Shown: piece by piece, positions 3,001-63,250 of the stretch | Layout: each line of letters begins with the position of its first letter | Numbering within the stretch: position 1 is the stretch's first letter | Assembly (NCBI GenBank): GCA_015233335.1 | Contig: JADFXX010000006.1 | Coordinates: 1,237 to 65,236 of the forward strand | Reading direction: 5' to 3' | From: Candidatus Omnitrophota bacterium | GTDB taxonomy: Bacteria; Omnitrophota; Gorgyraeia; Zapsychrales; Fredricksoniimonadaceae | Length of the DNA: 64,000 nt | Position numbers and translations under genes: made by a program | Notes under the pieces: model-generated | The model's input: the letters and a program-made list of their open reading frames with translations, nothing else | Databases searched by the model: none | Told to the model about the DNA's origin: nothing

Positions 3001-4527
3001 ACTGCCTGAGGTCAGGACCGCCCCTGACGGAGACACTGTAAATTGCGATGCCGGCCCCACCGCAAACATATTCCCCGGCAACACTGTCCCGATGCCGACG
3101 AGAGTGCCTGTCGAAAAGACATTGGTATTGATCTCTGTCCAGCCGCCGCTTGAACTGACCCCTGTCAAGCCCGCCCCGTTACCGACAAAAGCGATCGCCT
3201 TGACCGTGCCGTTGACATCCAGCGCATAGCCGGGGGATGCGGAGCCTATGCCTACATTGCCGCCATTGGTAATGCGCATGACTTCGGCATTGTTGGTCAG
3301 GAATCTTATGTCCGGTGTTGTCGCCGCAGATGCCGCTATCGAGGCCTTGTTGTCACTGCCTAAATTTAATGCATTTGTTCCTAAAATCCTTACGGTTCCA
3401 TTCACATCAAGTGTCTGACCCGGTGCCACTGAATTGATGCCCACGTTGCCGCTGACCGTTGCCAAATATGTGTTGCCTGTTACTGTCAAAGTACTAAATA
3501 ATGAAGAGCCTGATGTAAATGTCAGGCCTTCTGTAACATTCAAAGTCCCGATCGTCGCTTCCGCCAAAAACGCTGTCCCATCTACTTCCAAATCATGCTG
3601 CATATAGACATTGCCCGGACCTGACTCAAATAACGGGAAGGCTCCCGGTGTTGTGGATATGTCCAATAACGCCTGCGGTACTGCTGTCCCTATGCCGACA
3701 TTATTTGAAAATGTGGTAATCCCCAGCAACGTATTGGCGCCGGCCCCTGTTTGTGTATACCCGCCCGCTGTTTTGATAGCACCTGACGGAGCCACCTGAA
3801 ACTGTGATGCCGGACCTACGGCCAATAGATTTTGCGGAGCGTTTGTACCCACCCCGAGATTGCCCGCAAAGGCATTGATACCGGCCCCGGTTTGCGTATA
3901 ACTTCCTGAGGTTGTTACCGCACCCGTCAATGACACCGCAAACTGCGATGTCGCGCCAACCGCCAGCATACTTCCCGGCACAGTCGTCCCGATGCCTACA
4001 TTGCCGGAGGTCGTCGCCAAAAATGCGTCGTGCAAAACTGTTAAAGTATTAAAGGTCGAGCCTGAGGTTGAGATGCTCTGCCCCCCTGATATCGTCAAAG
4101 AAGCGATCGTTGCCTCTGCCAAATACGCCGTCCCATCGACTTCGAGATCGTTCTGGATATAGACGTTACCGGCCCCTGACTCAAAGGTAGGGCCTGTTGA
4201 ACCTGTTGAAATATCCAATAACGCGTGCGGCACCCATGTGCCGATACCCGTATTGCCGTTTAAAACCACCATCGCCGTGCCCACCCCCACATTGCCATGG
4301 ACAAACAGATTACCGGTGGAGTCGACCCGGGCGACTTCAGATAAATTTAACTTCTGAACGGAAAATCCGCTTGTGCCGTCATTGGAATCCAGCTGGGCTT
4401 GTATGTCTGCGGCTTGAACTGATGCGGGTATAATAAAAAGAATAAAAAGAAAAAATCGGAAAGCGACTCCTGCAATATCATTGCAAAGAGCATTTTTCAG
4501 CAGCGAAGCAATCTTTTTAAAATTCAT
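1..4527 (-). CDS. Giant secreted fibre/beta-helix-like repeat protein, N-terminal 1509 codons (3' end lies beyond window start)
   Basis: Absent from the ORF track because no stop codon falls in the window. Manual translation from ATG at 4527 gives MNFKKIASLLKN...FFLFILFIIPASVQA (signal peptide). At least a dozen GNVGIGT/GNTGIGT motifs follow, with recurring GGWTEI(N/G)TNV(F/Y)T.GT.VGIGT modules. The last in-window codons read ...LDNGNGYVGIG. The + strand ORFs here (PIPTLP repeats) are antisense shadows. Confidence 0.8.
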   Translation of the reverse strand, partial: MNFKKIASLLKNALCNDIAGVAFRFFLFILFIIPASVQAADIQAQLDSNDGTSGFSVQKLNLSEVARVDSTGNLFVHGNVGVGTAMVVLNGNTGIGTWVPHALLDISTGSTGPTFESGAGNVYIQNDLEVDGTAYLAEATIASLTISGGQSISTSGSTFNTLTVLHDAFLATTSGNVGIGTTVPGSMLAVGATSQFAVSLTGAVTTSGSYTQTGAGINAFAGNLGVGTNAPQNLLAVGPASQFQVAPSGAIKTAGGYTQTGAGANTLLGITTFSNNVGIGTAVPQALLDISTTPGAFPLFESGPGNVYMQHDLEVDGTAFLAEATIGTLNVTEGLTFTSGSSLFSTLTVTGNTYLATVSGNVGINSVAPGQTLDVNGTVRILGTNALNLGSDNKASIAASAATTPDIRFLTNNAEVMRITNGGNVGIGSASPGYALDVNGTVKAIAFVGNGAGLTGVSSSGGWTEINTNVFSTGTLVGIGTVLPGNMFAVGPASQFTVSPSGAVLTSGSYTQTGSGINSFSGNVGIGSVSPAYNLDVNGTVKATSFIGGGAQIMGVTTAAGWTEIGTNVYTTGTNVGIGSTSPSHALDVQGSVYLSGNMGIGVTNPAAKLNVVGGIQSGSIFGNTSYNAFFNEKVGTGSVVAWAFDVVNNGVSYNNNLVMDRGTVGIGIAPSSTGYPDTLNVGGTGYFSGNVGIGTSAPSAQLQVGSGNPAFFTSIPSSEFIQNDLEVDGTAYLVDATIGNLTVTSGITLTTGSALFNTLTVTGPTYLATTNGNVGIGTVLPAQKLDVIGSVKAISFIGNGTQITGVTTGAGWTEIGTNVYTTGTNVGIGTVSPGNLLAVGGASQFAVSPAGSISTSGSYTQSGTGANTLTGNTAFNASPISATFAGNVGINSVAPGQMLDVNGTVRITGTSSLNLGSDNTAAIAPSASTTPDIKFVANSAEAMRIANTGNVGIGSATPAYKLDVNGTVKAIAFIGNGSGLTGVSSGGGWTEINTNVFTVGTLVGIGTTTPGNALDVRGTVYLSGNVGIGTQAANSAALAVFNTGGFGISLDGATLFNNMSFAPTTNFTGISYDKTKQNLVFDSNNNGPQLLLGPNGNVGIGTSAAAVQLQVGAGAPQFFTAGAGSEFIQNDLEVDGTAYLMEATIASLTITSGLTLTGGSVFDTLTVKGNTFLATQTGNVGVGTTLPSQKFDVEGTAYFNSNVGIASISPSHALDVQGSTYFGGNMGIGSTSPSHALDVQGSTYFGGNVGIGTTAPPSALTTFAQANPNVTSIDTGNGGSPVLYHIANTFNSMNVTTASGINNVSDLNYVYINPSVPISSVLGMTNIVTVPSTNSTVWNATITGFRSSASNYGSAFTGTLNGGSFAASNNGGAANLGTVTGMSILASIGGSAVSTSNLVYGLNVSVINNNSSATVNNLYGIYIQGIDTSGGVINNPYDIYASDASASNYMAGSLGIGMYSPVYTLDLNGGSSDIGDSSAGVLTLQGQGGSVATQHNILDNGNGYVGIG

Positions 4528-4681: not shown

Positions 4682-6397
4682 TTATATAATTTGCAATGTT
4701 TGAAGCTTTAAAAGAAGATCACGGGCTTTTATAACCGCATTTTCGGATGATCCGCCATATTCCAGAAAAACACAAAATGCGATATTCTCTTTTTTAGGAG
4801 ACCGGGTATATCCGGCAAACCACGCATGGTTAGGTTTTCCATGGACACTTTGAGCCGTACCTGTTTTTCCGTAGATCTCTAAGCCCTTGATATCCCTCAA
4901 AGAATGGCCTGTTCCTTCCTGATCATCCACCACCGCTTTTAAGCCCTTCTCTACCGCATCCCAAGTTTCATCACGCAAACGGACAATGGGCCTTTGGGAA
5001 AAGTCCAAAGGAAGAATTTGCCGCTCCCCTACCGCTTGGACCAAACGCGGGCGCAGGATCACTCCCTTATTGGCAACAGCGGCCATCAGCACCGTTAACT
5101 GCAGGGGCGTTGTTAACGTGTACCCTTGCCCTATGGACAGGTTAAGGGTGTCTCCGGTATACCAGCCCAGACCCTGAGGGGAACTGGTGATGAGCTTGCC
5201 GCTGGCTTCAAAAGGCAGATCGATTCCTGTCGGCCGATTAAGCCCAAAGGCTTTTGAATAAGCGCCGATGATAGGGGCGCCTACAAGCTCTCCTAAATGA
5301 AAAAAATAAACATTGCAGGAGCGCGCCAGCGCACCCGTCAAATCCTGAACACCGTGGACATGCGAACATCCGAATTTCCGATGCCCTACCATCATGTATC
5401 CGGGACAATCAAATCTCGTCGAAGGTGTGATCTTATGGCGCTCAAGGGCGGCTAAGGCGAGCGGGATTTTAAACACCGAACCCGGCGGGTACTGGCCGGA
5501 TACCGCACGGTTGAGCAAAGGGGTCTCGGTGTCTTTAAAATAAACATCCAGATGATCGCGTTTATTCTTGTTGGTAAATACATTCGGGTCATAGGAAGGG
5601 GAACTCACCAGACACAAAACATCCGCACGGTCTAATCCCAAGACCACAATGCTTCCCCTTGAGCCTTTGAGCAATTCCTGGGCGGCCTCCTGAAGCCGCT
5701 GGTCGACTGTTAAGGTAACATCAAGGCCACCAACGGCGTCCTTAAGCCCAAGCAGGCGCACCTGACGGCCCCGGCTGTTGATCTCGATCTGACGGCCGCC
5801 GGGAGTGCCCTGAAGATCGGCATCATATTCATTCTCGATCCCGGTCTTACCGACGATACTTAACGGTGTCACCCCATAGAGGTCCTGGTCCTGCAACTGG
5901 GTGTCATCGATTTTTCCGACATACCCGAGTATATGCGCCCCTATGTCATCCTTCGGATAAAAACGCTGGAAGCCCTGCTGGATCTCCAGTCCCGGATAAA
6001 GGAATTTTTCTTCTTCGATCTTGACCGCCAGCTCACGCGGGATATCTTCCGCCAGAATGACAGGGGCAAAAGGAGCTGTTTTTTTGCGCAAAAACTGGCG
6101 CTCAAGCAGCGCCGGATCACGATTGAGCACGCGTCCTAAATAATCAAACAATACCTTTTTGTTTTCTATGTCCTGAGCGATAACCCCCAAATGAAAAGCC
6201 ATGCGGTTATCCGCAAGGACGATGCCGCGACGGTCAAGGATCCTGCCGCGCAGGGCATCAGAGACGACAACACGAATGCGGTTGTTGGTGCTCTGGCGAT
6301 GATAATAGTCGCCATGAATGATCTGCAGATAAAACAACCCGCCGACGATCAGGCTTAAGAAGAAAAAAATAACGGATTCGATCAATTTAAAACGCAT
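4682..6397 (-). CDS. mrdA: Penicillin-binding protein 2 (elongasome transpeptidase)
   Basis: 571 aa with an N-terminal TM anchor. Carries SxxK (SVFK), SxN (SCN) and KTG (KTGT) motifs. Directly downstream of an MreD-like gene. Confidence 0.9.
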   Translation of the reverse strand: MRFKLIESVIFFFLSLIVGGLFYLQIIHGDYYHRQSTNNRIRVVVSDALRGRILDRRGIVLADNRMAFHLGVIAQDIENKKVLFDYLGRVLNRDPALLERQFLRKKTAPFAPVILAEDIPRELAVKIEEEKFLYPGLEIQQGFQRFYPKDDIGAHILGYVGKIDDTQLQDQDLYGVTPLSIVGKTGIENEYDADLQGTPGGRQIEINSRGRQVRLLGLKDAVGGLDVTLTVDQRLQEAAQELLKGSRGSIVVLGLDRADVLCLVSSPSYDPNVFTNKNKRDHLDVYFKDTETPLLNRAVSGQYPPGSVFKIPLALAALERHKITPSTRFDCPGYMMVGHRKFGCSHVHGVQDLTGALARSCNVYFFHLGELVGAPIIGAYSKAFGLNRPTGIDLPFEASGKLITSSPQGLGWYTGDTLNLSIGQGYTLTTPLQLTVLMAAVANKGVILRPRLVQAVGERQILPLDFSQRPIVRLRDETWDAVEKGLKAVVDDQEGTGHSLRDIKGLEIYGKTGTAQSVHGKPNHAWFAGYTRSPKKENIAFCVFLEYGGSSENAVIKARDLLLKLQTLQII

Positions 6398-6398
6398 A

Positions 6399-6890
6399 TC
6401 AGCTTTTTAAACTAAAAAAGACACTTATATCCCTTAGCTTTTGAAAAACAAATGTCGCCACAATCATGGTCGTTAATACCTGCGGGACTAAAAGACCCAG
6501 AAACAATTGGGAAAATCGGACCTGACGGTTGGCGCTGACCAATATGGCCTGTACGATAAAACACACGATGATAACCAAAAACGCCACCAGTCCCCGGGAA
6601 AACCTTGACCCCTTCTGATATAAATACCGGCGTACCAGTGTGGTCACGTAAGCCGCTGTGACATACACCAGTATATAAGTCCCCAAGGGCGCAATGCCTG
6701 AAGCATCTTTTAAGAGACCGCAAAACACCGCCGCAATAATACTAAAGCGTATGCCCAAATACAAATTGAAGAATATAACGACGAGGATCAAAAACTCGGG
6801 CTTGCCCCAACTGCCGAAAGCGTTAAACAACACAAATTCCAGCACAAAGGCCAGATAACTGACCAGGGCTATAACCGCAATGCGTTTCAT
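6399..6890 (-). CDS. mreD: MreD-like rod-shape membrane protein
   Basis: 163-aa polytopic hydrophobic protein immediately upstream of mrdA with a 1-nt gap. The call rests on context and size only. Confidence 0.55.
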   Translation of the reverse strand: MKRIAVIALVSYLAFVLEFVLFNAFGSWGKPEFLILVVIFFNLYLGIRFSIIAAVFCGLLKDASGIAPLGTYILVYVTAAYVTTLVRRYLYQKGSRFSRGLVAFLVIIVCFIVQAILVSANRQVRFSQLFLGLLVPQVLTTMIVATFVFQKLRDISVFFSLKS

Positions 6891-11613: not shown

Positions 11614-11758
11614 CAGCGGGTCCTGTCTAGGCCTTGATGTTAAGGTGCTCCTAATTAAAATGCGTACGTTACAGCCTTATAGAACGGAGATCCCCTTGTT
11701 CGCCCTAACATCAGTCACCGTCCGCCCCTTAACATCAATTCCGAGCCACCCGCCGCCG
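11614..11758. repeat. Family A structured intergenic element, copy 1 (divergent subtype)
   Basis: Termini GCGGGTCCTGTC.../...GCCACCCGCC. Helix CCTTGATGTTAAGG / CCTTAACATCAA. Conserved AAGGTGCTCCT. Lies between the hisS stop and the aspS start. Confidence 0.75.
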
Positions 11759-16900: not shown

Positions 16901-17674
16901 TTAATTTTTTATACCGATACCTTTTTTGAACAAAAATAGATTAACTAACCCTAAGATGATTGTCAAGATAACTAATACACCCAGACAAAAAAACGGATCC
17001 ACATCCGAAAACCCGAAAAACCCATACCTGAAACCGTTAACCATATAAACCAGCGGATTATACAAAGATGCTTTCTGGCATAATTCCGGCAGGCTGTGAA
17101 TGGAATAAAAGACCCCGCCCAGATAAATAAAGGGAGTCAGGATAAAATTCTGAAAAAACGCCACTTCATCGAAATTGCGCGCATACATACCGTTGATCAA
17201 GGCCGCCTGAGAAAAGACCACCGCGCTTAAAGTCATGAACAACAAAATCGCCCACCAATGGGTCACCACCGGATGCACAAAAAACAAAGAAACCAAGAAG
17301 ACCAAAACCCCCACGACGATACCGCGCACTACACCGCCTAGGACATACCCGGCAATAATGACCCAGTCGGGCGTAGGAGACACTAACACTTCTTCGATAT
17401 TGCGCTGGAATTTGGCCCCAAAAAAAGAACTGACCACATTGCCATAGGAGTTGCTGATCACCGCCATCATCACAAGCCCCGGCACAATAAAGGCCATATA
17501 GCTGACCCCGTTAATGGCCCTGACCTGTGAGCCTATGAATTTCCCAAATATAACAAAATACAAGGTCTGGGTGATCAAGGGCGGCAGAAGCGTCTGGCTC
17601 CAGATCCGTATGATCCGGGTGGTTTCCTTGCGAACAATGGTTTTTAACGCAATGTAATGCTCGTAGCTGATCAT
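16901..17674 (-). CDS. ABC-2 type transporter permease
   Basis: 257 aa, six hydrophobic segments, 4-nt overlap with the upstream ATPase gene. Confidence 0.8.
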   Translation of the reverse strand: MISYEHYIALKTIVRKETTRIIRIWSQTLLPPLITQTLYFVIFGKFIGSQVRAINGVSYMAFIVPGLVMMAVISNSYGNVVSSFFGAKFQRNIEEVLVSPTPDWVIIAGYVLGGVVRGIVVGVLVFLVSLFFVHPVVTHWWAILLFMTLSAVVFSQAALINGMYARNFDEVAFFQNFILTPFIYLGGVFYSIHSLPELCQKASLYNPLVYMVNGFRYGFFGFSDVDPFFCLGVLVILTIILGLVNLFLFKKGIGIKN

Positions 17675-18609
17675 TTTCTGAGTATCTCCAAAAATAATTT
17701 CTCCAGACGGTTGCCTTTAGGGTGAAAATCCGTGATCACAAAACCGCTTTGGGCCAATTTAAGGATGAGCTCATTGAGCTCTTCCCGTTTTTGGATCTCA
17801 ATATCGAGCGTGTGCTCATCTATTTGAACGGGATTATACGCGCGGACACCTTCCAAAGAGAGCATTTCCTTGACGGTCACACGGTAGGTGTCCTGAGGGA
17901 TCGTCCTTAAAAGGTTGCGGACACTGTCGAGACGCACAATTTCACCTTCCTTGATGATGGCACATTTGCGGCACATTTGCTCGACTTCTTCCAGATAATG
18001 GGTGGTCAGAAGAATGGTCGTGCCCGAAGCATTGATCTCGCTTAAATATTTCCACATGCCGTGGCGCAGTTCGACATCCACTCCTGCGGTGGGTTCGTCT
18101 AAGATCAGCATGCGCGGATGATGGATCAGGCCCCGCGCTATCATCAACCGGCGCTTCATACCACCCGACAGGGTGCGGGCCATGGCTTTGCGTTTTTCCC
18201 AGAGCCCTACCCTTTTGAGGATCTCTTGGGAGTCTTTCAAAGCAATTTTATAGTCAATGCCGAAATATCCTGCCTGATTGACCACGATGTCCTGTACCTG
18301 CTCAAACATATTGAAATTGAACTCCTGCGGAACAACACCGATGCATTTCTTGGCGGCTTCAAAATCAGTGTCGATGCTGTGCCCAAAAATCTTGACACTG
18401 CCTTGAGACTTGGTGACCAAGCCCGTCAAAATGCCGATGATCGTGGTCTTGCCGGCGCCATTGGCCCCCAACAGTGCAAAAAAATCGCCATCAGCGACGG
18501 TCAGATCAACCCCTTTAAGCGCCTTGGTCCCGGTGCGGTAAGTCTTGACTAAATTCTTGATTTCAATTGCGTTCATGTTTAACCTATTCATCCTTCCCTT
18601 ACCGCTCAC
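17671..18609 (-). CDS. ABC transporter ATP-binding protein
   Basis: GANGAGKTT, LSGGMKRRL and LILDEPT motifs. The start may be an internal Met (MNAIEIKNL). Confidence 0.9.
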   Translation of the reverse strand: MSGKGRMNRLNMNAIEIKNLVKTYRTGTKALKGVDLTVADGDFFALLGANGAGKTTIIGILTGLVTKSQGSVKIFGHSIDTDFEAAKKCIGVVPQEFNFNMFEQVQDIVVNQAGYFGIDYKIALKDSQEILKRVGLWEKRKAMARTLSGGMKRRLMIARGLIHHPRMLILDEPTAGVDVELRHGMWKYLSEINASGTTILLTTHYLEEVEQMCRKCAIIKEGEIVRLDSVRNLLRTIPQDTYRVTVKEMLSLEGVRAYNPVQIDEHTLDIEIQKREELNELILKLAQSGFVITDFHPKGNRLEKLFLEILRK

Positions 18610-18639
18610 TTATAGCCTTTGTAACACTACGCAAGCGGG

Positions 18640-18861
18640 CTGCAGGGATAGGATTGTTATTTTTAACTCACTGTCATTTTTAGTTAAAAATTCGTTACTT
18701 TTTGGGGAATCCCGAGCCGAAGGGCGAGGGATGTCTGAACTTGCTTGAGCTCTTTATTTCCAGGGAAATAAAGAGCGAGTTGTTCAGACACCCAAAAAAT
18801 AATGAATTTTTGACGTTAAAAAAATGACCGTGAGTTAAAAATAACAATCCTATCCCTGCAG
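18640..18861. repeat. Family B nested-hairpin element, copy 1
   Basis: Outer stem ctgcagggataggattgttatttttaactcac / gtgagttaaaaataacaatcctatccctgcag. The conserved core is shared with 35094-35334. Confidence 0.8.
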
Positions 18862-18882
18862 CCTCACCGCAAATTCTAGGAA

Positions 18883-19662
18883 CTACTTCATTTTAATAAC
18901 GATCACTTCTTCCAACTGCGAAAGATCGACTGCCGGTTCGACTAGGCATTCGGCGGTGTGGCTGTTGCTGGAGGCCTGCACATCGGTGATCTGTCCTATC
19001 AGAATGCCCTCGGGAAAGGCGGAGCTTAGCCTTGAGGTTAAAAGCTCGTCGCCTACTTTAACGTCCGCGTTGATAGTCAAATACTGCAGACGGCAGATCC
19101 CCTGCAGGGTCCCTGTTAAAAGTCCGTTCTCCCGTGAACGCCCGACAACTGCCGCAACGGCAAATGCCGGATCTGACAAAAGGATCACCTTGGCGGTATT
19201 TTTTCCTGCCTCAAAGATCCTGCCCACCACCCCCAAAGGGCTGACCACCGGCTGTCCTACACTTACCCCCTCGGCACTTCCTTTATCAATGATTAAAGAC
19301 GCATTCCAGTTAGAGGGATCCCGCCCTATAACATTAGCTGTGATCGAGACATAATTCTGATTGCGGCGAAAGGCCTGGATCTTGTCAAACCTCTCTGCCC
19401 TTTTTTCGCTCTCCTTGATAGCCAATAGCTCAGCTTTCAAGAGATCATTCTGCTTCCTTAAATGCACGCAGTCATCATAAGTTTCCCGATAGTAGAATAA
19501 TTTCTTTAACTCAAAGACCGGCACCTGCCATAGACCTACCGGTCTTATCATCGTATCCAAAACAGCCCCGGCTTTAAAATTCTTCGGATGAAAAAAAAGG
19601 ATCAGGAGAGGGACAACAAGGATGCTGACGTAAAGAAATTTTTTGAAAGTTTTGCGCCACAC
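18883..19662 (-). CDS. mreC: Rod shape-determining protein MreC
   Basis: 259 aa with an N-terminal TM, a coiled-coil and beta-barrel repeats. Directly downstream of mreB. Confidence 0.85.
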   Translation of the reverse strand: MWRKTFKKFLYVSILVVPLLILFFHPKNFKAGAVLDTMIRPVGLWQVPVFELKKLFYYRETYDDCVHLRKQNDLLKAELLAIKESEKRAERFDKIQAFRRNQNYVSITANVIGRDPSNWNASLIIDKGSAEGVSVGQPVVSPLGVVGRIFEAGKNTAKVILLSDPAFAVAAVVGRSRENGLLTGTLQGICRLQYLTINADVKVGDELLTSRLSSAFPEGILIGQITDVQASSNSHTAECLVEPAVDLSQLEEVIVIKMK

Positions 19663-19672
19663 GATTTATTTC

Positions 19673-20782
19673 TTAGAAGTCTAATTTGGCCTGGGCTGTA
19701 AAACGACGGCGCATCGCGGGGGTCATATTCAGTGTCGCCCCTGTTCCGTTGACAACTGCCGTCAGGGGATCATCCGCCACATGCACAGGCAAACCTGTTT
19801 CTTCGGCAATGCGCTTATCCAAACCCCGAAGCAATGAACCTCCGCCGGCCATGACAATGCCGCGGTCAATCAGGTCGGCCGCCAACTCCGGAGGCGTATG
19901 CTCAAGCGTTGACTTAGAGGCATCCACAATGGCCTGAACCGGATCCTGCAGGGCCTCACGGATCTCGACCGATGTCACATTGATCGTTTTAGGCAGGCCT
20001 GCAATGAGATCACGTCCGCGTACATCCATGTTCAACTCTTCTTCCAGCGGATAGGCAGAACCAAGACGGATCTTGATCTCCTCTGCCGTGCGCTCGCCGA
20101 TCATCAGATTATACGTTTTACGCAAGTATTCTATAATGGCCATGTCCATTTCATCCCCGGCAATACGGATGGATTTGGCATAAACCAGTCCTCCTAAGGA
20201 TATCACCGCAAACTCCGTCGTACCGCCGCCGATGTCAATGATCATGTTGCCGGCCGGTTCATGCACGGGAAGACCCACCCCGATGGCCGCGGCCTTGGGC
20301 TCCTCAATCAAAATGACGTTACGCGCTCCTGCATGCTCGGCAGAATCAATGACCGCGCGTTTTTCAACCTGGGTAATCCCGGAAGGAATGGCGATCACAA
20401 TCGTTGGCCTGAAAGAAAACCTGTTGGGCTGGACTTTCTTAATAAAATATTTGAGCATGGCCTCGGTCACTTCAAAATCCGAAATAACGCCGTCTTTCAT
20501 GGGGCGGATGGCCACGATACTGCCCGGTGTACGGCCGAGCATCCGTTTGGCTTCTTCGCCCACTGCCAGCACACGGTTTGTTTCTTTTTCGATCGCCACG
20601 ACAGAAGGCTCACACAAAACCACCCCTTCCCCTTTAACATAGACAAGGGTCGTGGCAGTCCCTAAATCGATCCCGATATCCTTGGAAAAAACCCCGAGAA
20701 CTTGATCGTATATAAATTTAAAAAACTTTTTGATCGTATTAATCATGGGCACCATCTTATCGAAAAGGCCATAGACTGTCAA
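19673..20782 (-). CDS. mreB: Rod shape-determining protein MreB
   Basis: Actin-fold motifs [14 protein letters not shown] and [11 protein letters not shown]. The start may be an internal Met. Confidence 0.92.
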
Positions 20783-24791: not shown

Positions 24792-24980
24792 GTGCGTGGG
24801 ATGGAAGGGCAGCTATTATGTTTTCGGAACATTCGGGGATTTTTGGCCAAAAGTTTGCGAGGATTTACAACAAATTTTTTCCAAATGAAGAGAATCTTTA
24901 GAAAAAATTTGTTGTAAACCGAAGCAAACGGCCAAAATATCCCGTTCCGAGAACATAATAGCTGCCCTTCCATCCCTGCA
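24792..24980. repeat. Family C foldback element, copy 1
   Basis: Arms gggatggaagggcagctattatg... / ...cataatagctgcccttccatccc. Apical loop ccaaatgaagagaatctttag. Lies between the lspA stop and the lgt start. Confidence 0.8.
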
Positions 24981-29630: not shown

Positions 29631-29772
29631 GCGGGGCCTGTCCTTAGCCTCAATACTAAGGTGCTCCTCCGTCGGGGGCTGCCCTGACGGAAGCTCCGAT
29701 GGTGGTTTGCCCTCAACCGCCCCTTTGAACAGGGGCCGTGCGCGCCTTAGTATTGAGGCTAAGGACACCCGC
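29631..29772. repeat. Family A structured intergenic element, copy 3
   Basis: Termini gcggggcctgtcc...ggacacccgc. 20-bp helix ccttagcctcaatactaagg / ccttagtattgaggctaagg. Lies between the proC stop and the mtnP start. Confidence 0.8.
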
Positions 29773-32086: not shown

Positions 32087-34885
32087 TTATTTTATACTAC
32101 CCGAGTCATCTACAAAAGGAATTTCTAAATTAAATATCTCGGCCGTGATAAACTCCAGGGCTTGCTTGTAAGCTCCCAGACGCTCTTGACTGTTTTTAGC
32201 CCCTGAGGGATCAAAAAACAGGTCCATACTTGTTGTCCTTAAATAGTAAAGAGCGCTGTTAACACAACACCCGGGAAATTGCCGGCATAAATAATCCGCG
32301 TACAAGGGCATCTGGAATGATTTAACATGCTCGCGGATATAGTCACGGTTTAATTTAAGCCCGGGAATCCCGGAAATGTCTTGGGGCATGCTCTCCACAG
32401 AGCCTGTTTTATAATCTAAAATTAAAATGGTTCCGTCAGTCAATTCATCAACACGGTCAACCCTGTAGGTCCAATGCACCTTTTGGCCTGCCAGTGTGAG
32501 GGTCTCTTCAAACTTCTTTTCTACCCAAAGCACCTTTTGGACCTGATCCCGGCAACGGGCGGCTTCAAAATTTAAAAACCTTTCTAGTCTTGTTTTTAAG
32601 ACCGTTTCCATCAAAAAAGCATCGCTGCGCCCTGCGCGGCCGAAGACAGCGGCAAACTTGCTTTCGTAAATTTTCTGGAAATATTTACGGAAAGTTTCAT
32701 CGAGCAATGGTTTTTTCCCGACAAACCCGCCAAACGCTTCCTCAAGCAGGTCATGAATGAACGTACCAATATGACGAGCCTCGGGATTGTCCAATAAATC
32801 ATCCTTGGGCCTCAATCCCAGAATATACTGGCAATAAAAAGCGTACGGATTTTTGAGATACGTGTTGATGCTGGTGGAAGAAAACCTGAAACTTTTAAGA
32901 TATTCCAGCATCGATGCTGTTTTGGGGATGCTTCGGCTTTTCTTTTCTACGGAAACATCAAAAGCTCCCCTGATGATCTCAAGGCCCCCTATCACACCCA
33001 AACGCTGTTCCTTCTCCCAGATGAGTTCTTCCAAAAACCGGCTTCGCACGCGGTCATTGTTCTGCTGATAGATCAGATGCACGTTTTGGGCCGCACTGAT
33101 TAAGCGCATGAAACCATAGCGCTGGATCTCTTCTTCCAGCTCAAGACGGTCAAGATCCAGTTTGATCATCACCTCCCGGGGTATCAAGGGCTCATAAATG
33201 TTTAAATTAGGCAACAGGCCTTCATTGACGTCCACTACGATCACATTCTTAAAATTCAAAGCACGGGTTTCAAAAAGCCCTAAAATCTGCACGCCCTTGA
33301 GCGGTGAGCCTGAAAACGCCACCATTTCGGCCGACAAACGCTCTTTTAAAACCCGGAACAATTCCCTGGGCTCGAAGACCTCCCGGGCAAAGCTGCAGGA
33401 TGCCAATTCATCAGCAATGTCCTTCATACGCAGGGCAATCTCGGCGTTAAACGGATATTGATCCATGGCGCTATTGCTTTGCATCAAATCGACAAACCCT
33501 CCCAAGGCCCGGGCCAAATCCTCCGGAGAACATATATTTTCAAAATCTTTAAAAAATACTTGATGGACCAAGTGCGCCTCTTTCTTGAGTTCACTTAAAG
33601 AAACGCTGACATCCATCGCCTGCAAGGTTTCAAGAACCAAACTTAAAAGCTTCTCATCCCGGATAATTTCGCCTAAATCCAAAAATATGCGGCCGGACAG
33701 GTCGCTCAATACCTCACCTTTGAGCACTTCTTCTATTTTTGAAACCAACACACGCGTAAGACCGGGTTTATCTGCGGCACTCAAATTCCTGACCAGAGCC
33801 TGCCCTAAGAGGCGCAAATAGTCCCTGGTATAATACAGCGAGCCCTTACGGTGATTCTGGGCTTCTATCACCAATGTCAAAAGCGTATATAAAGCGCTGC
33901 GTTTAAGCGGATACCCCATGGATATATTAAATTCCCCGAGCTCCTCTCCCAGCGCGGTCAAGAGCGTCAGAAGAAATTCACCGTCGGGCAAAACAATGAC
34001 CGTTGACTCAATATCCCCGATCCCCTGCAGGATCCGGTTGACCATGCCCGCCTGAAGGTGGCTGTCAAAAGCTTCATAGACCTTTAGCTCAAATTTACCG
34101 GGTTTAACCCGGGGACCTTCAAGAATCGGAGTCCCAAAAGTCTTGGCAATGCGCTCAAGTGCCGGCCAACGCCTCTGATCACCCTGCATGAACAGAACTG
34201 CTGAGGCCCGCCCATAAATATTCCTGATAACCGCATTTTCAGTCCGGTGAAGATAAAAGAAATTGCAAAATAAGATTTCATCGAAGGGACTTAAGTCACA
34301 GGCACTGACACGGCGTGAGGCCTCTAGGTATCTAAACCCGCGCGGGGCTAATTGCCGCTGTTGAAGATGCCGGTGATAGGCCCCCCGCAATACAAACAAA
34401 TTCATCAGAAGCTTATTGATATCTTCGGGTACGCTGTAACCTATTTGGGCGTGCTCTTTAATGCGGCTCAAGGATTCCGACGGCACATCCTCCAGATCCA
34501 ACTGCTCGATAAAATGAAGGATCTCCCGGGCCCATGGTAAAAACTGGGCGAAAGTCTCGCGATTGTGACAAACCCAAGGGCATAGTTCACGCGCTAACCG
34601 ATAAATGGTATAGCAGTGGTCCAGTTCACTGCCCGCTGAAAACGGCTTTAGGCCATACGCCACATAAGCCATCCAGTCATCGATGGTAAAAAACTTGGGC
34701 GGCACAAATGCACGGCCGATGCGGCGCGCCAATTCCTTCTTGATAAACAGCTGGGGACGCCGACCGCCGAAAACAAGACATAGTCGGGAGAGATCCCCGC
34801 CCTTCTCACTATAATAACGATAGATATAGTCCACTACATGAGGGAGAAACTCTTCGGTAAATGGAACTGTAATAATCTTGCTCAT
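32087..34885 (-). CDS. AddB-like PD-(D/E)xK nuclease subunit (no Walker A)
   Basis: 932 aa. C-terminal RVDRVDEL...ILILDYKTGS nuclease motif. Cysteines (FYCQY...LCRQFPGCC) are compatible with an Fe-S staple. Follows the UvrD-like subunit. Confidence 0.7.
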   Translation of the reverse strand: MSKIITVPFTEEFLPHVVDYIYRYYSEKGGDLSRLCLVFGGRRPQLFIKKELARRIGRAFVPPKFFTIDDWMAYVAYGLKPFSAGSELDHCYTIYRLARELCPWVCHNRETFAQFLPWAREILHFIEQLDLEDVPSESLSRIKEHAQIGYSVPEDINKLLMNLFVLRGAYHRHLQQRQLAPRGFRYLEASRRVSACDLSPFDEILFCNFFYLHRTENAVIRNIYGRASAVLFMQGDQRRWPALERIAKTFGTPILEGPRVKPGKFELKVYEAFDSHLQAGMVNRILQGIGDIESTVIVLPDGEFLLTLLTALGEELGEFNISMGYPLKRSALYTLLTLVIEAQNHRKGSLYYTRDYLRLLGQALVRNLSAADKPGLTRVLVSKIEEVLKGEVLSDLSGRIFLDLGEIIRDEKLLSLVLETLQAMDVSVSLSELKKEAHLVHQVFFKDFENICSPEDLARALGGFVDLMQSNSAMDQYPFNAEIALRMKDIADELASCSFAREVFEPRELFRVLKERLSAEMVAFSGSPLKGVQILGLFETRALNFKNVIVVDVNEGLLPNLNIYEPLIPREVMIKLDLDRLELEEEIQRYGFMRLISAAQNVHLIYQQNNDRVRSRFLEELIWEKEQRLGVIGGLEIIRGAFDVSVEKKSRSIPKTASMLEYLKSFRFSSTSINTYLKNPYAFYCQYILGLRPKDDLLDNPEARHIGTFIHDLLEEAFGGFVGKKPLLDETFRKYFQKIYESKFAAVFGRAGRSDAFLMETVLKTRLERFLNFEAARCRDQVQKVLWVEKKFEETLTLAGQKVHWTYRVDRVDELTDGTILILDYKTGSVESMPQDISGIPGLKLNRDYIREHVKSFQMPLYADYLCRQFPGCCVNSALYYLRTTSMDLFFDPSGAKNSQERLGAYKQALEFITAEIFNLEIPFVDDSGSIK

Positions 34886-34898
34886 AGCCCTGTGCCCT

Positions 34899-35044
34899 GC
34901 AGGTCCTGTCTCGGACTTGCCATTAAGGTACTCCTAATTGAACCGCGTTTGTTAAAGCCCTACAGAACGGTGGTTTCCCATAACAAGCCCCTTGGGCAGT
35001 CACCGTCCGCCCCTTAATGGCAAAACTCCAAGCCACCCGCCGCA
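34899..35044. repeat. Family A structured intergenic element, copy 2 (divergent subtype)
   Basis: Begins caggtcctgtctcgg. Helix cttgccattaagg / ccttaatggcaa. AAGGTACTCCT junction. Ends gccacccgcc. About 13 nt upstream of the addB-like start. Confidence 0.75.
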
Positions 35045-35093
35045 ATGTACAAAGAAAAGTAGTGCCTGTCCCTACTTTTTAAGCGTTTCCTTG

Positions 35094-35334
35094 CGTGCAT
35101 TGCAAGTGATAAATTTGTTATTATGAGCGACCTGTCATTTTTTAGTCAAAAGGTCTTTATTTTTTCGGGAATCCCTCGACTTTTTTGTCGAGGGATGGCT
35201 GAACTTGTTTGTGCCTTAAAGTTCCAGAGAACTTTAAGGCGAGTTGTTCAGCCACCGAAAAAAAAAGAGCTTTTGACGTTAAAAAAATGACCGCGAGCGA
35301 ATAATAACAAATTTATCACTTGCAATGCATGCGC
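35094..35334. repeat. Family B nested-hairpin element, copy 2
   Basis: Outer stem gcattgcaagtgataaatttgttattatgagcg / cgcgagcgaataataacaaatttatcacttgcaatgc. The conserved core (gtcattttt..., ggaatccc..., ctgaacttg..., cgagttgttcag..., ttttgacgttaaaaaaatgacc) is shared with copy 1. Confidence 0.8.
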
Positions 35335-35339
35335 GCCGC

Positions 35340-38300
35340 TCATTGATCTTGTAAATATAAAACATGCCCCGAAATTTTATACTTCGGGTAAAATTGTCGG
35401 ACTAATTCGATATAGCCTTCCATCTGCTTTTGATGTTCGCCGGAAGCGGCGCCGGACAATTTATAGTCTACGATCCAGACTTCGTCCTTGAGCACGATCA
35501 GGCGGTCTATGCGCTTGGTGTCTCCGCATGCATTCACAAATTCTTTTTCGCATAAAACCTCTGCATCAGCCGGAAGATAAAAGAACCGTCGCACGTCCTG
35601 ACGGTTAATAAAAGAAAGGATCTGCGCAATAGCGCTCTCCCCTTCCTTATCTTCCCCACAAGGACGAGGGATTAGCTGACAGGAGCAATTCCATGCTTCT
35701 TTGATTGCGGCCTCGGCATTGCTGTCGCTCAAAGACCTGATGAACATCAAGACCGCATGATAAAATTCCCCCTTGCGCGCCCGGTCCGCGGATCTCGCAG
35801 GACGGTCCAAAAATTCTTCCCGTAATCCCTTCCACCCAGAAAATTTGAAAGGTTTGATCTTCCAGCGAGTTTCTTGGGGGACATGAGACGCCAGACGTTG
35901 GCGGGGCGTGCCTGTGCCCAGACATTCCTCCGGTATCAAAAACCGCGCTGGATTAACGCTGTTGCCTACTTTAGAAGGCACAAAAATATAAAGCTCCTCG
36001 ATGGCACGCGTTAACGCCACATAAGCGGTATTCAATTCAATCAAAAAAGCTTTTTTATATTCCTGCTCATACCTGTCCTGCAGTTGAGGACAAAACTGCC
36101 GGTAGCTTTCCTTAAGCCTTAAAAGCCCCATACCCTCTTGTTTAATATCCAGAATATAGGCCTGACTGCCATCGCGTCCGCCGCTTGAAGCTTTAATATC
36201 CATCTCGAAATACGGCACGATCACCACCGGGAATTCCAGCCCCTTTGCTTTATGCACCGTTAACACCCTGAGGGCATCCACATCCGCCATCGGGACGAAA
36301 CGCTCTTCTCCCTCAAGCTTCTCATAATAATCCAGAAAATAAGACAGGTCACAGCTTTGAGATTCCTGCCTTTTGACCAACTCCAAAAAATGCATGAAGA
36401 ATCCCAGAGAACCGGGGAAATGTTTTTCTAACCCCAAGCGCCCAATGATTGCGGCTGTTAGCTCGTATAGAGGATAAATCCCTGCCTGCCCTAGAGATTC
36501 TTCAAAGAACGACTCCCATGCCGCCGGAAATATATCACGGAAATGTTTGTAAAAACATACGGCTTTGTTTTGCTTGGAAAGCAGAGCACAGTCAAAAAGA
36601 AAATCGCGCAAGACTTCGGGGGCGAGACCCGTGGCTTTGGGTAGAAGCTCTCCTAAACAAAACTGCGCAAAAGCATTATTGTCCGTGGGAGAAGCTAAAA
36701 AAGTCAACAGGTCTATCAGCTCAGCGATCAGCGGATTATTCTTAATATCGCTCGTCCGCTCGGACTGGGCCCAAAGCCCTTCTTGCAAAAGCCATTGGGT
36801 GATCTCTTCGACTTCCTCATTGCCGCGGGTCAAGACTGCGATGTCTTTTAGAGAAAAACGCCTGCGCAAATCCGCCACTAGAGCTGTCAGCTGTCCACGA
36901 AGCTCCAAGGCCCTTTCCTGTTTAACACGTCCCTGCAGATGAACCACCCTCACCACCCCGCCGGCTAAATCCTTGCCCGGCAATTGTTGGGCGTTGGCAA
37001 AGGTATCGGCAATTGACGCAAATTCACTTTCTGAAAAATGAATATCCTTATGACGTTTGCTGCCTTTAGAATCTTGCAGACGCCGATCTAAAAAGCCGCG
37101 TAAATTGTCCAAACTAAACACGCGGTTATTAAACCTGATGATCTGTTCATAACTTCGGTAGTTGTGGTCAAGGCTCCTGACTTTGACATTAAAATGCGCC
37201 AGCTGGCTCTGTAAGGCATCGAATAAACGGCTCTCCCCGCCGCGAAAGGCATAGATCGCCTGCTTCTTGTCCCCCACATAAAAAAGAGAACCGCCATGGG
37301 CCAACGCTTCCTCAACCATTGTTGATAGATTGCGCCACTGGGAAAGTGAAGTATCTTGAAACTCATCTATCAAATAATGTTCGAAGCGTGCGGCCAGACG
37401 GAAATACAACTCCTCAACCGTGACCAACCCGTCCTCAAAAAGAGAAGCGGCGCGACGGTTAAGCTCTTCTAAGAACAGCACATCATCCCTTTGGGACAGC
37501 CGTCCAAAACAGGATAAGAGCCGGCCGAATAAAACAACATACGGGTCAAACATGCTTTGCGCTTCCCAAAGACAAAGATCATGGATTTCCCCCCGAAGTT
37601 TTAGCCACAACTTCTCAAGCGAGGGGGAAATCGTCCCCCCTTTATTCATAGGAAAATCCTCTTTAGCCCAACAGGCGTTAAGTTGATCCACATCAAAAAC
37701 ACCTTTTTGACAATCCACCAGCTCCTCTAAATGATCAAGGAGATTTTTTTTAGTCTCTGGGGGACAAATGTTCTTTAACTCCTGCATGAGAGCGTAAATT
37801 CTTTTCTTACGCGATAAAGAGTCCTCATCCGACGGGGATACTAAAAAGGCCTTCTGGTAAGTGTTGTATTGCCTGAATAATTCACTGATGACTAAAAGAA
37901 GGTCCTCCTTGGGAAACCACCCCCAACGGTTTTCCAGAAATAAATACTGGCGCACAAAATCCTCGAAAGCCCGGCGCAGGGATATATCATGGTCCGCTTC
38001 TTCTAAAAGCTCATCAAGGCTTAGCTGCAGGTATTCCTTGGAGTTGCGCTGGATCTTAAAGCGGGCTGAAAGCCCTATCTTGAATGAACAGCCGGATAAT
38101 AATACATTAATAAAACTATCAATGGTCTGGACCCCAAAATAATGATACTGACGGATCACATCATTCATCACAGCAAAAGCCAGAGGACTTGCAGCGGCAG
38201 AATCCAATCCCAAGGGCTCAAGGATGTCCCGGACTTCAAAAAGTTTTAATTGTTGAAGGGCAATGCGTTTGAGGAAATCCAAAATCCGGGATTTCATGGC

Positions 38301-38507
38301 CCAGGCGGCCTTATTCGTAAAAGTAATGGCCAAAATAGACTGTATGGCCGTCATTCTAAGCCCCAAGGCAGAAAAATCCCGGGATTGCCGGGCGGCTAAA
38401 TAAAGGCTTAGCTGTACATATCGGCGGGCCAGCTCATAGGTCTTGCCGCTGCCGGCGGACGCCTCAACGACAAGCACTTGCGGACTTTCTAAAAAACTAC
38501 TTTTCAT
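35340..38507 (-). CDS. UvrD/AddA-like helicase-nuclease subunit
   Basis: Walker A EASAGSGKTYEL, UvrD helicase motifs and a C-terminal PD-(D/E)xK (IDRLIVLKDEVWIVDYK). Likely start MKSSFLESPQ at 38507; the track ORF extends to 38609. Confidence 0.8.
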   Translation of the reverse strand: MKSSFLESPQVLVVEASAGSGKTYELARRYVQLSLYLAARQSRDFSALGLRMTAIQSILAITFTNKAAWAMKSRILDFLKRIALQQLKLFEVRDILEPLGLDSAAASPLAFAVMNDVIRQYHYFGVQTIDSFINVLLSGCSFKIGLSARFKIQRNSKEYLQLSLDELLEEADHDISLRRAFEDFVRQYLFLENRWGWFPKEDLLLVISELFRQYNTYQKAFLVSPSDEDSLSRKKRIYALMQELKNICPPETKKNLLDHLEELVDCQKGVFDVDQLNACWAKEDFPMNKGGTISPSLEKLWLKLRGEIHDLCLWEAQSMFDPYVVLFGRLLSCFGRLSQRDDVLFLEELNRRAASLFEDGLVTVEELYFRLAARFEHYLIDEFQDTSLSQWRNLSTMVEEALAHGGSLFYVGDKKQAIYAFRGGESRLFDALQSQLAHFNVKVRSLDHNYRSYEQIIRFNNRVFSLDNLRGFLDRRLQDSKGSKRHKDIHFSESEFASIADTFANAQQLPGKDLAGGVVRVVHLQGRVKQERALELRGQLTALVADLRRRFSLKDIAVLTRGNEEVEEITQWLLQEGLWAQSERTSDIKNNPLIAELIDLLTFLASPTDNNAFAQFCLGELLPKATGLAPEVLRDFLFDCALLSKQNKAVCFYKHFRDIFPAAWESFFEESLGQAGIYPLYELTAAIIGRLGLEKHFPGSLGFFMHFLELVKRQESQSCDLSYFLDYYEKLEGEERFVPMADVDALRVLTVHKAKGLEFPVVIVPYFEMDIKASSGGRDGSQAYILDIKQEGMGLLRLKESYRQFCPQLQDRYEQEYKKAFLIELNTAYVALTRAIEELYIFVPSKVGNSVNPARFLIPEECLGTGTPRQRLASHVPQETRWKIKPFKFSGWKGLREEFLDRPARSADRARKGEFYHAVLMFIRSLSDSNAEAAIKEAWNCSCQLIPRPCGEDKEGESAIAQILSFINRQDVRRFFYLPADAEVLCEKEFVNACGDTKRIDRLIVLKDEVWIVDYKLSGAASGEHQKQMEGYIELVRQFYPKYKISGHVLYLQDQ

Positions 38508-39210
38508 CGATGGAGAGCCAAATAGAATCTTCCAGAATTTCGCGGATGACGGCAATGGACGCTTCCAGTGATCTCTGTCCGGGCTTGAGACCCCAATCAA
38601 GGGTGTCACGGCCGTAAGAATCCAGCTTATCTAAGAGCTTCTGACGCTGCTGGGCGGTCACGGCCAAACGATGACCGCGGCCATTGACATTTTTATCGCT
38701 GATCAAGACCTTGGTCATTAATACAGTGGCCTGAACGATATCTCTGTTGATGTCTTTGCGTTTTAAGGCCAAGACACGCTGGGCCTTGACGAATTCAATT
38801 TCTTTGGGCCTTGTCGCCTGACCTGCGGTATTGAGCTCATTCCATTTTTCCCACAGGACTTTTTCCTGATCATTGACATCAATTTCACGAACGCAGTCTT
38901 TGACGACCATATTGGCGACCCTGCGTATCAGAGCATTGGGTGAAGCAAGGTACTTGACTAGATAATTCTTGATAATGCGAAGATCAGTGTTATCAAGCGC
39001 TAAGTCATTGATGCTGGCCTTGATCAGTTTGACCTTTTTGTTCCAACGGTCATCAATGTCTTTCAAATAGCTCAATGCCGTAATATAACTGCGGGCAAAC
39101 TCGTATTTTTTGATATCCGGGTTGTTTTTGCGAAATTCGTCAACGGCGAAGGCCGGATGAAAGCTCATGAAGCCATAAACGGCAAGCAATAACAGCAGGC
39201 GTCGGAACAT
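38497..39210 (-). CDS. Hypothetical secreted protein
   Basis: 237 aa with signal peptide MFRRLLLLLAVYGFMSFHPAFA. Helical composition and no recognised motif. Confidence 0.5.
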   Translation of the reverse strand: MFRRLLLLLAVYGFMSFHPAFAVDEFRKNNPDIKKYEFARSYITALSYLKDIDDRWNKKVKLIKASINDLALDNTDLRIIKNYLVKYLASPNALIRRVANMVVKDCVREIDVNDQEKVLWEKWNELNTAGQATRPKEIEFVKAQRVLALKRKDINRDIVQATVLMTKVLISDKNVNGRGHRLAVTAQQRQKLLDKLDSYGRDTLDWGLKPGQRSLEASIAVIREILEDSIWLSIDEK

Positions 39211-57923: not shown

Positions 57924-58064
57924 GCGGGGCCTGTCCTTAGACTCAATACTAAGGTGCTCCTCCGTCGATGGCAACCCTAACGGCAGCTTCTACGGTAGTT
58001 CCACTTAACCGCCCACTTGGGCAGGGGCCGTGCGCGCCTTAGTATTGAGTCTAAGGACACCCGC
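57924..58064. repeat. Family A structured intergenic element, copy 5
   Basis: Termini gcggggcctgtcc...ggacacccgc. Helix ccttagactcaatactaagg / ccttagtattgagtctaagg. Confidence 0.8.
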
Positions 58065-58119: not shown

Positions 58120-58309
58120 TGTGCGCGGGATGGAGGTACAGCTATTATGTTTTTGGCACAATAAGGAATTTTTTGCCAAAAGTCTTCTTAATTTTACGGC
58201 AAGAATGTTCCAAATAAAGAGAATCTTTAGAACATTGTTGCCGTAAATTTAATAAGACGGCAAAAATATTCCGTGGCGAAAACATAATAGCTGTACCTCC
58301 ATCCCTGCA
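58120..58309. repeat. Family C foldback element, copy 2
   Basis: Arms gggatggaggtacagctattatg... / ...cataatagctgtacctccatccc. Loop ccaaataaagagaatctttag. Confidence 0.8.
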
Positions 58310-63068: not shown

Positions 63069-63250
63069 GCAGGGATGGATAGCTGCTATTATGTATTCGG
63101 CACATTAAGGAATTTTTCGCCAAAAGTCTTCTTAATTTTACGGCAAGAATGTTCCAAATAAAGAGAATCTTTAGAACATTGTTGCCGTAAATTTAAGAAG
63201 ACGGCGAAAATATTCCGTGCCGAATACATAATAGCAGCTATCCATCCTTC
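63069..63250. repeat. Family C foldback element, copy 3
   Basis: Arms gcagggatggatagctgctattatg... / ...cataatagcagctatccatcc. The core is nearly identical to copy 2. Confidence 0.8.

Follow-up and report, generated by a model that had tools for sequence, protein, structure and literature searches.

A family of intergenic repeats with a conserved, strand-specific fold in Omnitrophota-type genomes

Two copies of a large nested hairpin lie in the 64,000-nucleotide stretch of DNA analysed here (the window: positions 1,237 to 65,236 of contig JADFXX010000006.1, assembly GCA_015233335.1, Candidatus Omnitrophota bacterium), and both belong to a multi-copy family, called family B below, in which one strand folds into a long rod of three segments that ends in a three-way junction bearing two hairpins. 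Our preferred reading, held tentatively and somewhat short of probable, is that family B, a multi-copy and non-coding sequence of about 230-250 bp in Omnitrophota-type genomes, is a non-autonomous insertion element that acts through a folded single strand, which would be its own propagation or maintenance substrate.

Copies A and B (coordinates in Table 1) align in the same orientation on the plus strand of the window. Their inverted-repeat arms are 44 nt long and 98% complementary in copy A, and 51 nt long and 86% complementary in copy B, and were found where an earlier note on this DNA had placed them. All five core blocks quoted in that note were recovered in both copies, the apical hairpins differ between the copies while each is self-complementary, as it had said, and its guesses at the flanking genes (MreC and an ABC ATPase for copy A, AddA-like and AddB-like genes for copy B) were right. 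Its description of the outer stems as unrelated stood only for the outermost 12-16 bp, which cannot be aligned, but the inner halves are homologous (GATA..TTGTTATT / AATAACAA..TATC), so that the outer stems of the two copies are diverged homologues, and mosaics in the family at large. The folding energies as RNA are −132 kcal/mol for copy B and −131 kcal/mol for copy A, against −52 and −47 kcal/mol for shuffled sequences (z-scores −18.4 and −17.8), and none of 200 shuffles was equally stable. Across the window, the two longest core blocks occur only at these two copies, with a chance expectation of 0.00-0.01 matches.

The wider family was collected by two scans. A 19-mer from the core, searched in one genome per species, gave 14 places, seven of which are true members (two of them internally deleted), from three Candidatus Omnitrophota metagenome-assembled genomes, one of these with three contigs, and from one such genome labelled Planctomycetales. 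An independent pattern from the junction region (GGGAATCC...GARGGATGKCTGAA) gave 76 metagenome loci. Peat and bog sites are the source of many of the contigs of the Ga01820xx and Ga03023xx series among them. A profile search over the collected sequence then returned 95 non-overlapping hits, 74 of them full-length and 68 distinct, with a length of 216-243 bp (about 230). Three copies share one 57.7-kb contig and three another of 29 kb, and about a dozen contigs end within an element, a typical effect of multi-copy repeats on assemblies. The earlier note had allowed that only the two window copies might exist, or that the core might match a known insertion sequence (IS) end or RNA family; neither is the case, given the 68 distinct full-length copies and the lack of any Rfam, plasmid or phage match. 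At the gathering threshold Rfam gave no hits in the whole window, and at permissive thresholds it returned generic long-hairpin plant miRNA precursors, the best at 36.5 bits against a threshold of 195. Nothing similar to family B was seen in plasmid and phage records, and no description of such repeats in Omnitrophota was found in the literature. As far as the searched resources show, family B is undescribed among structured intergenic repeats. Coding of a small peptide was ruled out, since no reading frame is conserved among the copies; the frame of a 55-codon open reading frame (ORF) in copy B is shifted in other copies by differences in the length of T-runs.

On the strand that folds better, termed the sense strand, the rod begins with the outer stem P1a of about 25-32 bp, which exists in several sequence types (e.g. 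..CATTGTAAGGGATAAATTTG.., ..GCTATTTGGATTCAATTTG.. and ..GTCGCTAACGGATAAATTTG..). Next comes an internal loop whose two sides cannot pair, since both arms read AGCGA in the same sense (GAAGCGAC / GGAGCGA). In the middle rod, GTCATTTTTAG.CAAAAG.. is paired with ..CTTTTG.CGTTAAAAAAATGAC, and the 3' arm carries a conserved unpaired bulge of the CGTTAA type. A variable segment of 12-14 bp leads from there to the three-way junction, which is laid out in the order GG-GA, P2, P3, A-CC. Hairpin P2 has the form AUCC(C/U)...(G/A)GGAU and hairpin P3 the form G(G/U)CUGAAC...GUUCAG(A/C)C; the apical stem of P3 is highly variable and its loop, YAGA, is conserved. Most copies have in P2 a tandem G•A motif (YGAG...CGAG) under a 3-bp tip, and we read the YGAG...CGAG of both P2 and P3 as a tandem G•A pair with covarying pairs on either side. 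Watson-Crick pairs have taken these positions in two of the collected loci (numbered with L), L034 and L035, which supports the tandem G•A positions stacking as a helix. A K-turn reading of the same motif was rejected, since the tandem G•A is flanked by pairs on both sides, without a 3-nt bulge. Loops, bulge and junction are thus the parts conserved in sequence, while the stems vary with their pairing kept. In one copy, at L065:~6600-6640, there is an additional small hairpin (GCCTGCCGTTAGGCAGGC) where the 3' arm has its CGTTAA bulge.

Covariation was counted on an alignment of the 68 copies with an RNAalifold consensus of 57 pairs. The middle rod was left out of the counts as it was misaligned by MAFFT; by eye it covaries as well, in three or four matched arm variants. 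Standard pairs are formed in 94.8% of the cells as against 76.9% in column shuffles, double compensatory changes occur in 47 of the 57 pairs, and 20 of the 22 pairs of helix 1, the outer stem, covary. The covariation score is 0.50, compared with 0.18 in shuffles and 0.08-0.12 when the partner is slid by 1-3 columns, and no shuffle out of 500 reached any of the observed covariation measures. The covariation test on further copies for which the earlier note had called thus gives a strong signal, and its statement that a conserved core is combined with variable yet paired stems extends to the whole alignment. Selection on structure, which it also proposed, is supported by the same score, but that claim does not tell RNA from single-stranded DNA. 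With about 230 nt, 47 covarying pairs, a three-way junction and tandem G•A motifs, family B is one of the better covariation-supported large structured motifs outside Rfam.

The constraint is specific to one strand. The mean RNA folding energy of the 68 copies is −113.6 kcal/mol for the sense strand and −98.2 kcal/mol for the other strand (mean gap 15.4), and the sense strand folds better in 67 of the 68 copies with RNA parameters and in 66 of the 68 with DNA parameters. In the consensus-pair cells of the sense strand there are 186 G•U against 35 A•C, with 29 pair columns in which G•U exceeds A•C against 8 with the reverse, and A•G/G•A cells number 89 against 12 of C•T/T•C. The sense strand alone tolerates mismatches of the G•U(T) and G•A kind. 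Mechanisms that work on a duplex, such as recognition of terminal repeats in double-stranded DNA, cruciform formation or template-switch correction, predict no such asymmetry, and we therefore infer that what selection acts on is a single strand of fixed polarity.

This asymmetry speaks against the view that family B is a classical cut-and-paste MITE (miniature inverted-repeat transposable element) or a plain DNA palindrome, whose covariation would arise as a side effect of matched terminal inverted repeats (TIRs) or of template-switch correction, no folded strand being selected for. Such a view accounts for the inverted repeats at the ends and for a family that is small, multi-copy, AT-rich and intergenic, and it would fit copy A, where the internal loop is now fully paired (AACTCAC/GTGAGTT), as a template switch would make it. 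It predicts neither the excess of G•U over A•C and of G•A over C•T on one strand nor the covariation that reaches the two internal hairpins. The ends speak against it too. The termini are the least conserved part of the element: even between the closest copies no similarity is left over the last 12-16 bp on either side, and there are several unrelated types of terminus. A direct repeat of at least 3 nt beside the maximal hairpin, as expected of a target-site duplication, is present in 0 of 66 copies, and 2-nt direct repeats are present in 7 against 4.7 expected. There is a weak excess of direct repeats nearby, and the few copies with short flanking repeats (e.g. 9 nt in L090 and 5 nt in L078) could be cited for a MITE. 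Of the classical features, size, lack of coding capacity, copy number and presence or absence at orthologous sites are seen in family B, and conserved outermost TIR bases and target-site duplications are not. The element is in this sense the reverse of a classical MITE, as the earlier note had put it, and we regard the MITE or plain palindrome reading as largely contradicted already and highly improbable.

Family B behaves as an insertion in other respects. All copies are intergenic, none lying inside an ORF, and they occur in either orientation relative to their neighbours. The MreC/ABC ATPase junction measures 306 nt in the window, where it is filled, and 14 nt in the related contig L017, where it is empty; likewise a junction filled in L002 is empty in L030 and L013, and one filled in L045 is empty in L086, whose two genes overlap by ATGA. 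The addA/addB junction is occupied both in the window, by copy B, and in L048, by differing occupants, and other shared junctions (L051/L073/L076/L078 and L072/L053/L009) differ in subfamily, copy number or orientation. Internally deleted, chimeric and decorated derivatives exist. Inner and outer parts combine as a mosaic: L067 and L062 have interiors 93% identical and different outer stems, as would result from one continuous tract of conversion or replacement that covered the interior. The idea that the outer stems are pre-existing target palindromes was dropped, as no stand-alone ones occur in the 715 kb of collected sequence and the empty sites are without them.

Copies have thus been inserted into very short spacers between housekeeping genes, in either orientation, and we tentatively favour a model in which the folded sense strand would be the element's own propagation or maintenance substrate. 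The folded strand is taken as this substrate since its polarity is unrelated to gene direction and GC skew and no conserved promoter accompanies it. Copies between co-directional genes are antisense in 25 cases and sense in 14; the GC skew on the sense strand is negative at 33 loci and positive at 23, which is not significant; and neither positional -35/-10 boxes upstream nor a terminator downstream of family B copies was seen. The strand would most likely be single-stranded DNA, and the gene for the enzyme that recognises it would lie at another place in the genome, as in REP/RAYT or IS200/IS605-type systems, and an element-derived transcript would be less likely. Insertion would be polar, the 3' end abutting a gene and later repeats landing only at the 5' end, and any effect on the host, e.g. 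of a very stable hairpin in operon transcripts, would be secondary.

Several points weigh against this model. Sequence alone cannot separate RNA from single-stranded DNA as the folded strand. A replication-fork-dependent single-stranded DNA transposon such as IS608 is expected to show an orientation bias relative to GC skew, and the absence of such a bias weakens a model of that kind. No mobilising enzyme was identified, and a parent IS sharing the element's termini was seen neither in the window nor among the ORFs of the 90 loci nor in plasmid and phage records. Transposase, recombinase and reverse transcriptase are absent among the 54 ORFs of the window, no RAYT (Y1 HUH) gene is present in these 64 kb of the source genome, and among the ORFs of the 90 loci no protein family recurs beside the copies, the clusters being housekeeping orthologues. 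The closest pair of copies is 94.8% identical, so that no two exceed 95% and there is no sign of recent transposition. The flanks of the filled and empty pairs are only 75-85% identical, and exact ends and any duplication are therefore unreadable there. Finally, among copies at the same orthologous junction, 70% of the changed pairs stay paired (84 compensatory, 27 wobble and 47 broken), which could reflect purifying selection in place and a host function, or equally turnover; some of these same-junction pairs differ in subfamily, so that replacement or repeated insertion is as likely as evolution in place.

The strand-specific fold with its conserved loops, bulge, junction and tandem G•A motifs is also what would be expected of independently transcribed structured small RNA genes, the three-way-junction RNA being the product, for instance as a scaffold or for binding a protein. 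The AT content of the 5' flank is higher (64% vs 58%), with 14 promoter-like matches (at least 9 of 12 positions) against 2 in the mirror-image flank, and it is on the 5' side, the place for a promoter, that the additional non-coding DNA is found. Against this, much of the promoter-like signal is supplied by adjacent family A repeats (described below), half of the solo copies have no more than 26 nt between their 5' end and the neighbouring ORF, and the lack of conserved promoter boxes and terminators weakens an RNA-gene reading. Presence and absence at orthologous sites, deleted and chimeric derivatives and assembly breaks are moreover typical of mobile repeats, and we consider RNA genes of this sort unlikely.

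The position of the copies, always intergenic and close to a gene end (median 13 nt), could instead suggest a host-domesticated cis-acting mRNA element, in which the rod in operon transcripts serves as an RNase III site, 3'-end stabiliser or insulator. Elements persist at a junction although the genes on either side are no more than 71-85% identical, and most of the changed pairs remain paired, which would be in line with this, and there is precedent, since RNase III cleavage of Correia-containing transcripts and an effect of ERIC on mRNA decay are documented (PMC10969869). The selected strand is, however, antisense in 25 of 39 co-directional cases, both window copies included, and the mRNA therefore mostly carries the less constrained strand. 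Subfamilies, numbers and orientations at the junctions also differ among genomes, which looks like turnover and not like a fixed regulatory part. An mRNA element thus seems to us rather unlikely.

Returning to the insertion element, its two ends differ in their surroundings. From the sense-3' end to the next ORF, whatever the direction of that ORF, the median distance is 13 nt, and from the sense-5' end it is 143 nt (Wilcoxon p=1.5e-4). Other repeats are found within 80 nt on the 5' side in 26 cases and on the 3' side in 0 of 68, and it is these repeats that make up the extra DNA on the 5' side. The 26 neighbours are 13 family A copies, all in one orientation relative to the family B copy whose 5' end they directly adjoin, 12 family B copies in head-to-head pairs, and 1 family C copy. 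Copy B of the window conforms to this pattern, its 5' spacer being taken up by a degenerate family C copy. A weak asymmetry persists in solo copies, with medians of 44 nt (5') and 10.5 nt (3'). The head-to-head pairs, whose 5' ends face each other across 10-100 nt, are at L019, L072, L078, L053/L063, L032 and L022, with partial ones at L090, L023, L057 and L024, and those inspected consist of one CATTGTAAG-type and one GCTATTTGG-type copy. The accumulation on the 5' side only may mean that insertions next to the 3' end are selected against, or that the 5' end is a preferred, orientation-controlled landing site. There is a small chance, in our estimate, that family B, perhaps together with its companion families, represents a new class of bacterial element, propagated or maintained by way of a strand-specific folded intermediate, in which a three-way-junction core with conserved loops would be recognised, the outer stem would only need to pair, insertion would be polar, with the 3' end against a gene, and the 5' end would be a landing pad for more repeats. 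The 5'-only accumulation, the fixed orientations of the neighbours and the occurrence of a sequence of about 30 nt, GTCCTCATRCCGGACAYTCRCAGTTGYTC, in hairpins of several repeat families hint at an undescribed hairpin-targeting insertion mechanism in Omnitrophota.

Comparison with known repeats shows partial likenesses, in behaviour to ERIC, Correia and the Rickettsia palindromic elements, and in the strand-specific fold without duplications to REP/REPIN and IS200/IS605-type substrates. ERIC and Correia elements have TA target duplications. Like ERIC/IRU and Correia (CREE/NEMIS), family B is a small non-coding multi-copy intergenic palindrome, found in either orientation, that would form very stable hairpins when transcribed (PMC10969869). 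It differs from them in being a three-way junction of about 230 nt with variable termini, no duplication and one-strand asymmetry, whereas ERIC and Correia are simple hairpins of 100-160 bp with conserved termini, and it shares no sequence similarity with them. The Rickettsia palindromic elements (RPEs), reportedly treated by Ogata et al. in 2000, are a further background for comparison. Like RPEs, the repeats found here comprise several unrelated palindromic families across a compact genome, with structure conserved beyond sequence, and RPEs too are without a known associated transposase (PMC10969869). Unlike family B copies, which lie outside ORFs and have no conserved frame, RPEs are often in frame within protein-coding genes and encode peptide.

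REP, BIME and REPIN sequences are extragenic palindromes thought to be recognised as strand-specific folded single-stranded DNA, without target duplications and long-lived at their sites, and they are mobilised by a single-copy RAYT (HUH Y1) enzyme encoded elsewhere. Family B shares with REP and REPIN the strand-specific fold and the lack of target duplication. In contrast to REPs, of 20-40 nt, and to REPIN doublets, which measure about 70-110 nt and whose 5' tetranucleotide is conserved, it is about 230 nt long with a three-way junction, and no conserved flanking tetranucleotide or other flanking motif was seen at its copies. The IS200/IS605-derived PATEs and the integron attC sites likewise act as strand-specific folded single-stranded DNA, in which structure and extrahelical bases outweigh stem sequence, and they insert in a polar manner without target duplication. 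Family B resembles the IS200/IS605 type in its polar behaviour and lack of duplication, but the ends of those elements are two different subterminal hairpins without TIRs, they insert 3' of a fixed tetra- or pentanucleotide and they show a strand bias relative to replication, whereas family B is a single fold-back without fixed flanking motif or GC-skew bias. It also differs from attC sites (57-141 nt, with RYYYAAC / GTTRRRY cores, in cassette arrays) in its length, its setting among housekeeping operons and the lack of a shared GTTRRRY core.

The phylum Omnitrophota is widespread and for the most part uncultured, and its genomes are compact. Family B inverts the rule usual for bacterial MITEs, in which conservation lies at the termini and the interior can change freely. 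Should the folded strand be a substrate of transposition, an enzyme with structure-specific recognition, not yet known, would be implied; should it be an RNA, it would be a new abundant class of non-coding RNA in a poorly known phylum. For practical work, family B explains contig breaks in Omnitrophota assemblies, and its sequence can serve to mark the group in metagenomes.

Coding sequence makes up about 90% of the window, and all its ORFs but three are on the minus strand, including the four genes that flank copies A and B, so that both copies are antisense to their neighbours (Table 1).

Table 1. Positions in the window of the two family B copies, the parts of copy B, the flanking genes and the neighbouring repeat families
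Feature	Position	Strand	Remarks
Copy B, complete nested hairpin	35093..35332	+	+ is the better-folding sense strand; inverted-repeat arms 35093-35143/35282-35332
Copy B, outer stem P1a, 5' arm	35094..35124	+	Partner 35301-35331; sequence varies among copies, pairing kept
Copy B, conserved internal loop, 5' side (GAGCGAC)	35125..35133	+	3' side 35292-35300, GCGAGCGA
Copy B, middle rod P1b/P1c, 5' arm (GTCATTTTTTAGTCAAAAG...)	35134..35168	+	Pairs with 35255-35291; invariant columns
Copy B, junction GA and hairpin P2 (AUCCC...GGGAU)	35169..35196	+	From the fold; helix 3 of the family consensus
Copy B, hairpin P3	35197..35253	+	GKCUGAAC/GUUCAGMC stem, internal loop, second YGAG...CGAG, apical stem; helices 5 and 6
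Copy B, conserved CAGA loop of P3	35225-35228	+	Above the variable apical stem of 12-13 bp
Copy B, junction A	35254	+	
Copy B, conserved unpaired GUUA / CGTTAA bulge, middle-rod 3' arm	35278-35281	+	
Copy B, outer stem P1a, 3' arm	35301..35331	+	From the fold and the family alignment
Copy A	18638..18863	+	Inverted-repeat arms 18638-18681/18820-18863; outer arms 18640-18671/18830-18861, P2 18709-18732, P3 18733-18789
AddA-like helicase-nuclease (UvrD+PD-(D/E)XK)	35340..38609	-	Stop codon 7 nt from sense-3' end of copy B
AddB-like PD-(D/E)XK gene	32087..34885	-	207 nt from sense-5' end of copy B
mreC	18883..19662	-	Stop codon 19 nt from sense-3' end of copy A
Gene for the ABC-transporter ATPase (ATG at 18576)	17671..18576	-	61 nt from sense-5' end of copy A
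Degenerate family C copy in the 5' spacer of copy B	34899..35043	+	74% identity to window 11616-11756
Family A, nested hairpin of ~180 nt	24798-24976, 58127-58305, 63073-63247		Ends GGGATGGA...CATAATAGC...TCCATCC
Family C, hairpin of ~128 nt (TGTCCTTAG..CTAAGGACA)	11624-11748, 29639-29767, 57932-58059		8 hits in the collected sequence

The gene mreC and mreB (19676-20782) lie about 12 kb apart from mreD (6402-6890) and a PBP2-like gene (4685-6397), and the genes between mreC and mreD are unrelated housekeeping genes (ABC transporter, YceI, PilZ, HU, HisRS, AspRS and PhoH). The ABC ATPase follows directly after mreC in L017 too. At the window edge (1-4527, minus strand) an ORF of at least 1509 codons continues past the edge, with no Pfam match at E<=1e-5. 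A replication origin near 58 kb, at the GC-skew minimum, was considered and dropped, as the genes keep to the minus strand across that point.

Families A, B and C together fill 6-7 of the 13 intergenic gaps of at least 200 nt in the window. Family A gave 23 non-overlapping hits in the collected loci, and its folding energy is without clear strand asymmetry. Between the family C remnant and copy B, at 35047-35075, there is a weak hairpin, AT-rich and with runs of T on both strands (AAAGTAG-TGCCTGTCC-CTACTTT), which the terminator scan did not report. Another hairpin, CCCCTCTTTATA.AAAAGAGGGG, recurs at L013:3070, L034:521, L067:455, L028:2359, L049:410 and L016:186, several of these being separated by about 20-25 nt from the 5' end of a family B copy of the GTCGCTAACGG type, and may be a terminator or a further small repeat.

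The sequence of about 30 nt mentioned above is absent from the window and occurs nine times as an insertion (L004:~2986, L049:~148, L020:~185, L022:~3566, L034:~371, L083:~14113, L024:~5033, L015:~10745 and L061:~3452); four occurrences are within copies of family B, where they take two or three different positions, two are in GGATTCCCGC...GCGGGAAT palindromes, in the loop, and one is in a family C-like repeat. It has the look of a very small insertion with hairpins as its landing sites. Another repeat family in the same genomes is made up of short REP-like palindromes, TGGATTCCCGC-TTKC-GCGGGAATGAC (e.g. L037:627 and 860, L040:4438, L044:3490, L045:1656, L048:5944, L062:4833 and 5555, and L068:2180). 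Their form resembles that of the neisserial dRS3-type ATTCCC..GGGAAT repeats. The motif GGATTCCCGS has 24 matches in the collected sequence, one of them in the window, and some of the matches are not that palindrome.

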